A stretch of DNA of 12,509 nt. Source: a virus. Its lineage: Duplodnaviria; Heunggongvirae; Uroviricota; Caudoviricetes. Shown one piece after another: positions 9,001 to 12,000 of the stretch (within the stretch, counting starts at the first letter, position 1; each line of letters starts with the position of its first letter). The stretch is from IMG/VR virus record IMGVR_UViG_2609460344_000006, positions 1 to 12,509 of that record, one strand, 5' to 3'. A program made the position numbers.

Positions 9001-12000
9001 AGACTTTTTGTCAAACACATCTATCGCATCAAGCATTTTTTGCCCCGCAAGCTGCGGCAATGTCTCTAGATTCAAATGCCCAACCTCAACACCAGACTCT
9101 CTTTCGGCCAAATCAAGAAGCCAGATACGAAGCTCTTTAGCTATCTTGGTTCGCGACATCATGCCAATAAGGTGCGCCCCTCGAGGAGAAAACAATCGAA
9201 CCTGAGTGTAATCTATCATGCTGTTTTTATTACACTTCCTCACTTTGGTCACAATTGTCATGCTATCTGTAAACTCATCTTTATGACGATTGTAGATATT
9301 GGAAACCTTATTTGAATTCGCATAACCAAGCAGATCTGCCAATGCCTCAGCGGTAAACCAAATCTTCCCATCACCATTATCAAATGGAATCACGGTATTG
9401 TTTTTGAACGTCAGTTCGTTCATTGAGCGTACTCCTATAGAAATGAGCCTCGTTGCCCAGAAACGCCGCCCGCAGAGAGGTCGCCACCTATAACGACGGT
9501 TCTCCAAGGCTCATTTCTGTAAGGCTCTGCGATTTACATGCGCCGGGCATGGCGCAGATATAAAAAAACCACCAACGCGGTAAGCGCCAGTGGCTTATTG
9601 ATACAGCCTCAAATTAATTGCCAGCACCGAGGTACCCACCCACAGAAGTTTCCCCTCGTTTTGGGGTGAGCTAGTCAACATTTGCACTCCCCAGTTTTGG
9701 GGAGCTCAAACGTTCAACGATGATGCTGCAGATGCGTTCATACCGGCTTTACCTTTTAGTGATGAACCTTGTCACACAGGATTCCGGCCCACAGAAAGGC
9801 ACCGATCACCAAACCGGCATCCTCAAGGGTCATCCTGAAAGGTTCTGTGTTAATAAGTCGCGCGTGTGAAGCGCATTTACTGAGGACATAAAAAAGCCCC
9901 GCTTCTGCGAGGCATTTTCCTGAAAGTCACTTGTTAAATTTCAGTGAAGTTAAAATTATTTTAAGCACTGAGTCCTGATGTACTCCTGCAGGTAGTTAAC
10001 CTGCGCGGTTATCTTGTCGATTCCACTTCGGAGACGGTAATAATTGAGTTCAGCATCTGCTGTAAGTCTTGGGCTTTCTCCATCGCCCATGCTGCTGGCT
10101 CCGGTAGTTGACTTTGCACAGGTGGCGGCGACTTGCAGGCGCTTACGCCCAGCAGAAACATCAGCACGGAGACTTTCAATAGTCGCGTTAGCATCAGCAA
10201 GCTCCTTTGTGTATCTGGTGTCAAGTTCTGCTACATCACGTTGCCGCTTCTGCATATCAGCGATGATGGATGTGGCTTTATCGCGCTGCGCTTTGTAGGT
10301 AATCGCGTTATCACGGTAATGGTCTGTTGCCATCCACAGCGCACCACAGGCCACCAGCAGAATAACGATAAACGCGGAAAGCATTCGGTTTATGTTCACC
10401 CCAGCAACCCCGACGAAGACAACATCATCCAGGCCATGGAAAGAAAAAGAGCAACCAGCATTAGTGAAAATGAAATGCCGACAATTACACAGAGGATCTT
10501 CGCCAGCGTTATGAGTTTGTCTGACATGCTTAATCCTCCCTTCACGATTTCAACGCAATGACCAGTTTTGCCAGCCCATACAGCATCGGGGACACAGCAA
10601 CACCGACCGCCACCCACTTAATGGCAAAAGCCAGTGCTCTGCTGATGTCATCAGTTACAGGCGCTTTCAGTTCAAGGCCATTTTTCATAGTCAACCTCAA
10701 CAGAATTCGTTTATACTTCGCCATGTTCTCCCTTGCCTTACTCAAGGTCAGAAACACAAAACCCCGCTTGGTGCCAACAAACGGGGTTTTTACTTTTATT
10801 CACTTACGTTTCGCCAGTTCGCAGGATTTCGTGTTATCCGCCCGCGTGGCCATACCTTATTTTTCAGCAAAATATTCTGCTTATCTGTCGATTCCCCAGC
10901 ACGCCAGCGCGCTCTCCTGGTCACGACGGGATACCTGACCATAACAGTTATTTGAGCGGATACGGCAGTCTCTGCCACCGTCCTTAATCCACCAGCGAAT
11001 CGCCTCACACGCTCCCCTGCGATCACCTGCATTAATTCGTTTATAAAACGTCGACGGGAAACACTTACCGGGACCAATGTTGTACGGACAGAATGACGCG
11101 ATCCCCGCTTTCTGGGGTTCACTCAATGGCACTCTGATGTTTTTCTCCACCCATGCCAGCGCCTTATCACGCTCAATGGCGTTAACCCGGTCGCATTTTT
11201 CCTTCGACAACTTCATGCCCGGAACGACAGGTTTGCCATCCACCAGGATGGCACCGCGGCAGATGGTCCAGATACCCGCGCCATCACGGTATGCCGTGGT
11301 GTGGTTACCTTCCTTTTCATCCAGAAACTGGTCGAGGATTTCAGGCGCAGGCGCACCTGCGGCAATCAGCGCCAGAACGGCAGCCGACAGGCCGTATTTG
11401 ATTTTGGTGTTCATGGATATTTATCAGGGTTTATCGATTTCAAATCCCTGGATATGTTAAGTCTTCAGGCCAGCGGTGGAGTCTTCAGAGAACCAGTAAT
11501 TATTCCCGGTAGTTTTCCTCTGTAGGTTATCAACACATCCTGCGCCTCTAAAATTACGGGGCGCTTTTCCGGCAACGGACCATCCCCTTCACATAACCCG
11601 GCAGCAACATCCATGAAAAACTGCTTCGCCTGCTTTTTCGCCTCAGCTTCGTAAAACTCCAGCGTGGCATCTTCAGTACGGTCAAGACTAATCGCCACAT
11701 CTGGCAACAACAGTGACGGATACCCACCAATTTCCAGTGCCACAGTAACAGTAATCTTATTCGGGTAATTATTTATCCCTTTAACAACCAGTTCGTATTT
11801 TTTCTTCATCGCTTTACTCTCCCCGCGCCGCCTTACGACGGTCCTCTCTGATTTTGAAATACAGGTTAGTCAGATATGTCAGCAGCCCAAACAGCAGACT
11901 CCCCAGTACGCCTATTGCCGCCCACTGAGACGGGGAAACCCTGTCCAGCAACTGCAGGAACCAGTAGCCCGTTCCCACCGCTGACGTGGTGTATGACACA

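Follow-up and report, generated by a model that had tools for sequence, protein, structure and literature searches.

The c4 RNA of phages P1 and P7 (Rfam families C4, RF01695, and c4-a1b1, RF03163, of clan CL00128), which controls icd-ant, is a stem-closed RNA with single-stranded a' and b' segments complementary to two boxes lying shortly upstream on the same transcript; it is processed by RNase P to an RNA of ~77 nt that acts in trans, and a second pair of target sequences, a2/b2, lies downstream and overlaps the ribosome-binding site (RBS) of the regulated gene. In phage T4, the mRNAs of mobE, I-TevI, e and soc carry simple hairpins that sequester the RBS, a constraint relieved by a late promoter located inside the hairpin, and some riboswitches have a platform closed by tertiary contacts, namely the kissing loop of the cobalamin riboswitch and the pseudoknots with which the SAM-II and preQ1 riboswitches hold the Shine-Dalgarno (SD) sequence. 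Here we analyzed a 12,509-nt stretch of DNA of a Caudoviricetes virus (IMG/VR record IMGVR_UViG_2609460344_000006, positions 1 to 12,509; hereafter the window) and found that an inverted repeat in front of its Bro-N domain gene is one helix, P1, of a conserved structured leader RNA encoded on the minus strand. This leader is ~135 nt long and consists of a hairpin (H0), a short helix that engages the SD (P0), three stacked helices (P1-P2-P3) and two pseudoknots (a/a' and b/b').

The repeat had been singled out in an earlier note on this DNA, and its description was borne out: AGAAATGAGCCT (9439-9450) and its exact reverse complement AGGCTCATTTCT (9507-9518) are separated by 56 nt, and the proximal arm (9439-9450) adjoins the Bro-N RBS on the 5' side in the mRNA, with the SD AGGAG at 9436-9432 on the minus strand. 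A repeat finder extended the arms to 15 nt with one mismatch (9436-9450 / 9507-9521). On its own, the repeat is only mildly unusual compared with chance, as perfect 12-nt inverted repeats with a spacer of 3-100 nt occur in 5.8% of random 12.5-kb windows generated by a first-order Markov model, and three are present in the real window. That it is not a chance occurrence follows from its homologs, since both arms form helix P1 in 81 distinct homologous copies, in which the pairs are kept by compensatory changes. The proposal that the arms form an RNA stem 5' of the RBS, acting in translational control or as a processing site, was therefore right in kind, the arms pairing in RNA as judged by covariation and by the asymmetry between G.U and A.C wobbles described below; what it had seen is one helix of a five-helix, two-pseudoknot element at 9421-9557, and it had overlooked two sister copies in the same window.

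When all classes of the leader were aligned together with MAFFT, P1 and P2 came out of register, and so we used class-wise alignments together with a covariance model (R1), built from 26 phi80-like representatives, with which 90 copies were aligned, 81 of them distinct (alignment A5). In A5, 93.7% of the pair cells hold a standard pair, compared to 79.6% in column shuffles (a level reached in 0 of 500) and to 32-45% when the partners are slid against each other; both partners vary in 34 of the 37 pairs, with a covariation score of 0.426, compared to 0.179 in the shuffles. Because A5 was fitted to the model, the counts were repeated on plain MAFFT alignments of the window class (A3) and of the phi80 classes (A2), which contain no structural information. 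The cells were paired in 93.6% of cases in A3 and 91.2% in A2, compared to 36-51% upon sliding, and the numbers of both-side-changed pairs and cells, as well as the covariation score, lay above all 500 shuffles. When A3 was folded de novo with RNAalifold, H0, P0 and P1 were recovered exactly, including an inner P0 pair that swaps between AU and UA (6:6), while the interior was mispredicted, as the pseudoknots and the gap placement of MAFFT interfere.

The copy in front of Bro-N (copy 1; 9421-9557, minus strand, from H0 to the Bro-N ATG) scores 85 bits with R1 (E=5.5e-18), and its parts are given here in the order of the RNA, all on the minus strand. H0 occupies 9539-9556 (arms 9556-9551 / 9544-9539, loop 9550-9545), pairs in 99.7% of A5 cells and, as stated, was recovered de novo; its loop holds box b, UGCCC (9549-9545), which pairs with b'. 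An A-rich linker separates H0 from box a, CGCAGAG (9525-9531), the 5' strand of pseudoknot a/a', which pairs with 9477-9471 in 100% of A3 cells. The anti-SD strand of P0, CUUA (9520-9523), pairs with UAGG at 9437-9434, as predicted by RNAalifold and supported by covariation, and is followed by the P1 5' strand AGAAAUGAGCCUUG (9505-9518), which holds the distal arm of the repeat and whose pairs change on both sides, and by the P2 5' strand AGAACCGUCG (9494-9503), in a helix where 9 of 10 pairs change on both sides. At the tip (9478-9493) lie the junction UUAU (9493-9490) and the hairpin P3 (9489-9486 / 9481-9478, loop GGCG at 9485-9482), all four pairs of which change on both sides and which is paired in 98% of cells. 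On the way back come box a', CUCUGCG (9477-9471), with a conserved GG behind it (9470-9469; together 9469-9477), the P2 3' strand CGGCGUUUCU (9459-9468; A5 covariation), box b', GGGCA (9454-9458), which sits between the P2 and P1 3' strands and pairs with the H0 loop in 98.5% of A3 cells, and the P1 3' strand CGAGGCUCAUUUCU (9439-9452; supported by the repeat and by covariation), which holds the proximal arm. The element ends with the P0 3' strand and the SD, U-AGGAG (9432-9437), of which A, G and G are paired in P0 (from the sequence, A5 and RNAalifold). P0 is thus a CCUU(U) box paired with the SD and stacked under P1, such that P1 runs on into a 4-5 bp extension that takes in the SD; in A5, its pairs to the SD Gs are CG in 56, UG in 12 and UA in 4 of the 81 copies at C49-G170, and CG in 76 of 81 at C51-G168. 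Non-Watson-Crick positions recur within both P1 and P2, in P2 at positions 5-6. The junction and P3-loop nucleotides are invariant or nearly so, but relax in the 933W and P22 classes (e.g., GGUUUG and an AUCG loop).

Since the unpaired segments are out of alignment register between classes, each sequence was tested singly for a/a' and b/b' complementarity. The H0 loop and the P2-P1 junction were complementary over 4-7 bp in 24 of their 25 distinct combinations, and 31 of the 35 distinct a/a' combinations gave at least 4-5 Watson-Crick pairs. Cognate partners formed on average 5.28 Watson-Crick pairs in b/b' and 5.89 in a/a', compared to 3.12 and 3.94, respectively, when partners were swapped, and for neither pseudoknot did any of 5000 permutations reach the observed mean. 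Some 13 sequence specificities are represented, and both pseudoknots covary through them. For b/b' these include UCUCAC/GUGAGA, UCGUAC/GUACGA, UAGCAC/GUGCUA, UGCCC/GGGCA, CGCCC/GGGCG, CCCAC/GUGGG, UCACAC/GUGUGA, CCGCA/UGCGG and CCACAU/AUGUGG, among others, and for a/a', CGAGAG/CUCUCG, CACAGAG/CUCUGUG, CCAAGAG/CUCUUGG, CACAGAA/UUCUGUG and CACCAA/UUGGUG; a further scan of deeper classes found boxes that are wholly different yet complementary (CCACCGA/UCGGUGG, CGUCGA/UCGACG and CAUCGA/UCGAUG).

Outside four mismatch-prone pairs, the wobble cells comprise 74 G.U and 11 A.C, and therefore selection acts on the transcribed strand. This bears directly on the other proposal of the earlier note, that the arms act in DNA as the half-sites of an operator, bound by a repressor of Bro-N. 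A perfect 12-bp inverted repeat adjoining a gene start invites such a reading, and the frequency of such repeats in random windows equally allows for chance; neither, however, accounts for arms that differ in sequence among homologs while their complementarity is held by compensatory changes, for wobbles that are specific to one strand where an operator would show conserved half-sites and strand-independent symmetry, or for the 56 nt enclosed by the arms, which are structured and conserved as well. Nor does a promoter-like site lie nearby on the minus strand, and we accordingly dismissed the operator and the chance repeat as practically without probability. A mobile element with terminal inverted repeats was also rejected, since interior and flanks alike show structural conservation and the element is invariably tied to a start codon. 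Likewise, an N-terminal coding extension of Bro-N (a TTG-started open reading frame (ORF) in the Bro-N frame, 8851-9507, 218 amino acids) was ruled out by in-frame stops in homologs, 33 of 76 copies having a stop codon in the frame of the ATG and no more than 12 nt before it.

The leader is present three times on the minus strand of the window, with a and b boxes that differ among all three copies. Copy 2 (9739-9876; R1 61.6 bits, E=3.7e-12) belongs to the 933W-ant class and carries b UCACAC / b' GUGUGA and a CACAGAA / a' UUCUGUG, and copy 3 (8050-8190; R1 54.2 bits, E=2.5e-10) belongs to the P22-rha class, carries b CCGCA / b' UGCGG and a CCACCGA / a' UCGGUGG, and ends at the ATG (8052-8050) of the KilA-N gene. 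A sensitive BLAST search with 9425-9620 found that ~105 nt spanning the repeat are ~80% identical in 49 phage records, including phi80, HK620, HK639, HK106 and phages of Salmonella, Klebsiella, Enterobacter, Edwardsiella and Providencia, and that a related copy exists in 1170 of 5426 complete E. coli genomes, at up to 6 places per genome. The region of copy 2 is ~91% identical to the region after Rz in hundreds of P22-like and Stx (Shiga toxin) phage records. The genes flanking the element are unrelated between the matching phages, and in all annotated cases the element is located among the late genes, mostly just behind those for lysis, with a Rha, KilA-N or similar gene directly downstream. 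More than 200 further loci came from pattern scans of viral contigs and of one genome per species, and genuine copies occurred solely in Enterobacterales (Pantoea, Erwinia, Rahnella, Rouxiella, Mixta, Providencia, Proteus, Edwardsiella, Symbiopectobacterium, Enterobacter and others); matches in archaeal, Ktedonobacterales and Chthonomonadaceae metagenome-assembled genomes (MAGs) had no flanking similarity and were discarded as chance.

With R1, copies were found upstream of P22 rha, at the ATG of 933W ant (a gene between R and Rz), before HK620 hkbK, and twice in phi80, before rha and before an N15 gp59-like gene. In nearly all copies the end of the model coincides with the start codon, whatever the gene. 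The proteins encoded downstream fall into the Pfam families Bro-N, KilA-N (with or without ORF11CD3 or P63C), Rha, AntA, ANT/KilAC, P22_AR_N, HNH_3, T5orf172/MUG113 and TerB, and several have no family. The suggestion to look for the same 12-mer near other antirepressor-like genes thus pointed in the right direction, though what recurs is the structure and not the 12-mer, in front of genes for Bro-N, KilA-N, Rha, AntA, ANT and P22_AR_N proteins.

A cis-regulatory role is indicated because the model ends at the start codon, the SD Gs are paired in most copies and P0 covaries, and we consider it rather probable, judging from the sequence and its comparison, that the leader acts as a translational gate on accessory genes of the late operon. 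The leader is transcribed from the minus strand within the prophage late operon, and its 5' segment contacts the long irregular hairpin at three places, by b/b', by a/a' and by the CCUU(U) box pairing with the SD. In the fully folded state the RBS would be held at the base of a knotted structure, so that translation of the downstream accessory gene would be off or low by default; here this gene is Bro-N, and elsewhere the gated genes would be KilA-N, Rha, antirepressors of the Ant type, nuclease-like genes of the free-standing HNH and T5orf172 kinds, and others. For release, the 5' lock would have to be opened or removed, by RNase processing, by a bound factor or ligand, or by temperature. The differing a and b boxes of three copies residing on one transcript would allow each to fold without cross-pairing.

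Several observations weigh against such a gate. Occlusion may be weak, because P0 comprises only 4-5 bp and lies at the end of a helix, and partition-function calculations of SD accessibility with and without the 5' segment, made with nested pairs only and hence with the pseudoknots outside the model, showed no consistent effect. Two pseudoknots and invariant junction nucleotides far exceed what masking an RBS needs, which suggests an additional or different function. Copy 2 has an intact fold but no real gene to serve: it lies behind the Rz terminator, and all that comes after it is an ORF of 11 codons (MNASAASSLNV), two hairpins and the terminator at 9596-9566. It represents either a recent deletion or an RNA with a role of its own, and the stretch between it and the terminator may be left over from a deleted gene or belong to a terminated, non-coding RNA of ~300 nt. 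No sigma-70-like promoter was found on the minus strand at 9424-9600, in a scan that covers sigma-70 only. Finally, in an IMG/VR viral contig (L154, 1009-1127) a terminator abuts P1, and H0, box a and the anti-SD are absent while P1-P2-P3 and b' are kept. As to the arrangement downstream of copy 2 (9558-9738), we observed that it is also found in viral contig L019, and that the two hairpins 3' of copy 2 (9653-9666 and 9689-9702) are similar, with the sequence CCCYNGUUUUGGGG.

The gate could be refined into a ligand- or factor-sensing switch, i.e., an orphan riboswitch or a leader that binds a protein or tRNA, where the three-helix core, its two pseudoknots and the conserved junction nucleotides would form a binding pocket whose occupancy decides whether P0 masks the SD. 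The complexity of the fold, the conserved unpaired nucleotides at the P2/P3/a' junction (GUUAUA, GGG and the GGCG loop), the recurrent non-Watson-Crick positions inside P1 and P2, an SD-pairing helix that could serve as expression platform and the lack of a matching RNA family all speak for this refinement; yet the downstream genes encode regulators, nucleases and proteins without a family, with no metabolic theme pointing to a ligand, and the junction nucleotides relax in the 933W and P22 classes. In addition, no conserved alternative 'on' fold was found: pairing between an upstream GAGCCU and the P1 3' arm is available in many copies but, as judged by eye, is not kept consistently. We hold such a switch to be possible but doubtful.

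The helices also invite a reading in terms of RNA processing or stability, a possibility already raised in the earlier note, by which the nearly continuous P0-P1-P2 duplex would be a site for RNase III or another RNase between cistrons, like the intercistronic sites of phage T7, and cleavage would separate the mRNA of the accessory gene and free or stabilize it. RNase III sites comprise about two turns of largely double-stranded RNA, and P0, P1 and P2 indeed offer ~28 stacked pairs with internal loops and conserved internal mismatches, in an intercistronic position of a polycistronic late operon right after a terminator. Such sites, however, need neither two covarying upstream pseudoknots nor a helix that pairs with the SD, and we regard this explanation as unlikely.

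Among the described systems, c4 has a layout of which the boxes of the leader are reminiscent. As in c4, two single-stranded segments of a stem-closed RNA are complementary to two boxes shortly upstream, and in the leader both complementarities are present and covary; as in c4, antirepressor-type genes lie downstream, and the boxes differ between related phages while complementarity is kept. The differences concern the helices, which form two side-by-side hairpins in c4 and a stacked P1-P2-P3 in the leader, the position of b', which in the leader lies in an internal junction and not in a hairpin loop, the SD, which in the leader pairs directly with an adjacent anti-SD box, and the genomic location, the leader being found in the late operon of lambdoid phages and not in the immunity region. 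The Rfam models C4, c4-a1b1 and c4-2 gave no match to the leader at E<=10 on 9380-9660, nor at gathering score in the window and in 8 other loci, while the P1 immI region, used as a positive control, scored 68.8 bits with C4 and 51 bits with c4-a1b1; reciprocally, R1 had no match in P1 immI. Targets of the a2/b2 type were sought at -30 to +90 around the ATG, where the longest matches to the reverse complements of a' and b' did no better than shuffled sequences (3.83 vs 4.15 and 3.92 vs 3.82, respectively). Because the C4 models miss the leader, R1 misses P1, the helices differ and a2/b2 are absent, the leader resembles c4 in layout without being a member of its family, and homology to c4 was rejected.

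A functional analogy to c4 is a separate matter: the P1-closed hairpin might be excised as a stable small RNA whose a' and b' would act in trans on matching a and b boxes of transcripts of its own or a co-resident phage, giving a type-specific, immunity-like control of antirepressors as in P1 and P7. The matching layout, the antirepressor-type genes downstream, the many box specificities, reminiscent of P1/P7 heteroimmunity, and the persistence of copy 2 without a real gene would all fit. Set against them are the model searches just described, which miss in both directions, the stacked instead of side-by-side helices, the absence of targets over the RBS and the fact that the boxes are already satisfied in cis, and together these make an antisense function of this kind improbable.

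The other systems share less with the leader. As in the T4 mRNAs, the SD of accessory and homing-endonuclease genes is held by upstream RNA on read-through transcripts, here by P0, and several copies of the leader precede free-standing HNH genes; unlike the T4 hairpins, the leader has five helices and two pseudoknots, and an internal promoter in the style of T4 is without support because no minus-strand sigma-70-like site lies in or just upstream of the leader. The linker sequences show no conservation of a -10 element either. With riboswitches the leader has in common a complex, conserved and covarying aptamer-like fold upstream of a gene, long-range pairing from a loop to a junction and an SD within a helix, and it differs from them in matching no Rfam model and in its regulatory and nuclease gene context, which is not metabolic. 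P22 sar/ant and Gifsy-1 IsrK/anrP (Rfam isrK) are likewise cases of RNA-level antirepressor control in enterobacterial temperate phages, but they are antisense or dual-function small RNAs of other sequence and structure, and Rfam isrK has no match to the leader. The Pas small RNAs of enteropathogenic and enterohemorrhagic E. coli prophages map to the same late regions, close to the holin and lysozyme genes of Stx-like prophages, yet all of them end in an intrinsic terminator and are of the Hfq type (Zhu, Shabalina and Storz, bioRxiv 10.64898/2026.05.13.724894). The leader, in contrast, has a terminator in front of it and leads into an SD and start codon, and with no terminal terminator it was rejected as a Pas small RNA (PasA-D).

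In a search of Rfam 15 at gathering thresholds, no family was found in the window and none covered the element in the 8 other loci, and at E<=10 on 9380-9660 the only matches were weak ones to the upstream terminator hairpin. A scan for tRNA and tmRNA gave no match. Literature searches on c4 and antirepressors, on rha, phi80, P22 and IHF, and on KilA-N, Rha and structured RNA, whose coverage did not extend to a 1995 rha paper, found no description of the element, and its core sequence appears in no paper of the searchable literature. The leader thus seems to be an undescribed RNA family of wide distribution, as far as Rfam 15 and the searchable literature, without that 1995 paper, show.

A compact fold with two pseudoknots and conserved nucleotides at its junctions is typical of small ribozymes, which phage genomes commonly encode, and since no known family matches, a self-cleaving ribozyme of an undescribed class was considered too. 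The fold and its conserved junction would suit one; the leader does not resemble the Rfam hammerhead, twister, pistol, hatchet or HDV-like models, however, and its constant coupling to a start codon and SD favors translational control, leaving a ribozyme very improbable. Taken broadly, the notion that the leader is a new class of signal-sensing regulatory RNA, whether an orphan riboswitch, a factor-binding switch or a small ribozyme, that times the synthesis of antirepressor-like, KilA/Rha and nuclease proteins from the late operon is tentative, and we would not expect it to hold; were it true, a signal-sensing RNA would serve lambdoid phages, including Shiga-toxin phages and P22, with the a and b boxes as orthogonal addresses for several copies per transcript.

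Little is understood of Rha, KilA, Bro and Ant-type proteins, which are toxic or have regulatory functions, and their control in the late operons of lambdoid phages is largely obscure. It is therefore of interest that one shared structured leader stands before such genes in those temperate phages that have been studied best (P22 rha, phi80 rha, HK620 hkbK and 933W ant), in roughly one of every five complete E. coli genomes and throughout the Enterobacterales, covered by no Rfam family. As the covariation is unusually strong and includes both pseudoknots, mutational and probing experiments can be designed directly, and the covariance model provides a seed for annotating the leader in phage and prophage genomes.

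The leader also corrects likely misannotations of start codons, where the annotated gene runs through it. In P22, the real ATG of rha is at position 39645 of NC_002371 and the annotated start, 39575, lies within the leader (2146 and 2076, respectively, in our locus L247); annotated starts of rha/KilA-type genes fall within the leader in phi80 as well (L002, 2412 vs 2376), and in EPP-1 (L004), pPE4 (L005) and FSL SP-016 (L013). In such cases an ATG with a proper SD just past the element gives a conserved N-terminus, e.g., MNELIANHDFDFRQL for P22 Rha, and the starts within the leader are probably misannotated.

As for the surrounding locus, the window matches, with 100% identity, a lambdoid prophage of the Stx type in E. 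coli cM8a, whose late operon reads, all on the minus strand, Q, tRNAs, nanS-p esterase, holin, lysozyme, Rz (9956-10384), a 532-nt gap and Bro-N, followed by two small ORFs, KilA-N, HNH, terminase, capsid and portal. The Bro-N gene served by copy 1 (8851-9423, minus strand, start ATG at 9423-9421) encodes 190 amino acids (Pfam Bro-N E=6.5e-08; RefSeq WP_032188747.1), and the KilA-N / ORF11CD3 gene served by copy 3 (7498-8052, minus strand; RefSeq annotation) encodes 184 amino acids (Pfam KilA-N 9.2e-16, ORF11CD3 2.5e-11). An intrinsic terminator lies 10-25 nt upstream of most copies of the leader. In the window, the Rz/Bro-N gap holds two intrinsic-terminator-like hairpins on the minus strand, both found by a terminator scan: one follows Rz directly upstream of copy 2 (hairpin 9913-9896, feature 9890-9913, also supported by the sequence), and the other lies directly upstream of copy 1 (hairpin 9596-9566, with its U-run 9559-9596). 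A third, GCCUCGCAGAUGCGGGGC with a U-run (8204-8228, minus strand), was read from the sequence upstream of copy 3. The same scan flagged a 5-bp hairpin with a U-rich tail at 9444-9459 on the minus strand, within b' and the P1 3' strand, which is most likely a by-product of the leader motif and not a terminator. Between the U-run of the terminator and H0, a semi-conserved spacer (AUGUCCGCAGUAAAC, AUAUCUGAAUUUCAC or GUACAGAUAUUUCACC) occurs across classes at many loci, in the window at 9877-9889 and 8191-8203, and is unlike a sigma-70 promoter.

Some minor observations concern the related loci and the rest of the window. The 5-kb regions of Actinobacillus phage vB_Apl-pPE4 (L005) and of a prophage of E. 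coli HNSQ2209 (L012) have the same gene layout and identical model matches at identical coordinates; the Actinobacillus phage is thus essentially an E. coli prophage, which suggests host misassignment or contamination, and a Cellvibrionaceae MAG contig (L215), whose element matches the HK620 sequence over the compared overlap, may likewise be misassigned or contaminated. Rfam matches to int-alpA RNA and rydB RNA in related loci (L112, 554-618, and L218, 7940-8000) are unrelated to the leader. Finally, between the HNH endonuclease gene and terS, a ~12-nt motif (ATGTTAACTGGC / GCCAGTTAACAT) recurs 4-5 times at 6180-6310, pointing either way. Perfect inverted repeats of 12 nt (6182/6222 and 6220/6299) are part of this cluster, as is the palindrome CCAGTTAACATGTTAACTGG, and these motifs are probably terminase or cos-region binding sites of a putative HNH-dependent packaging module.

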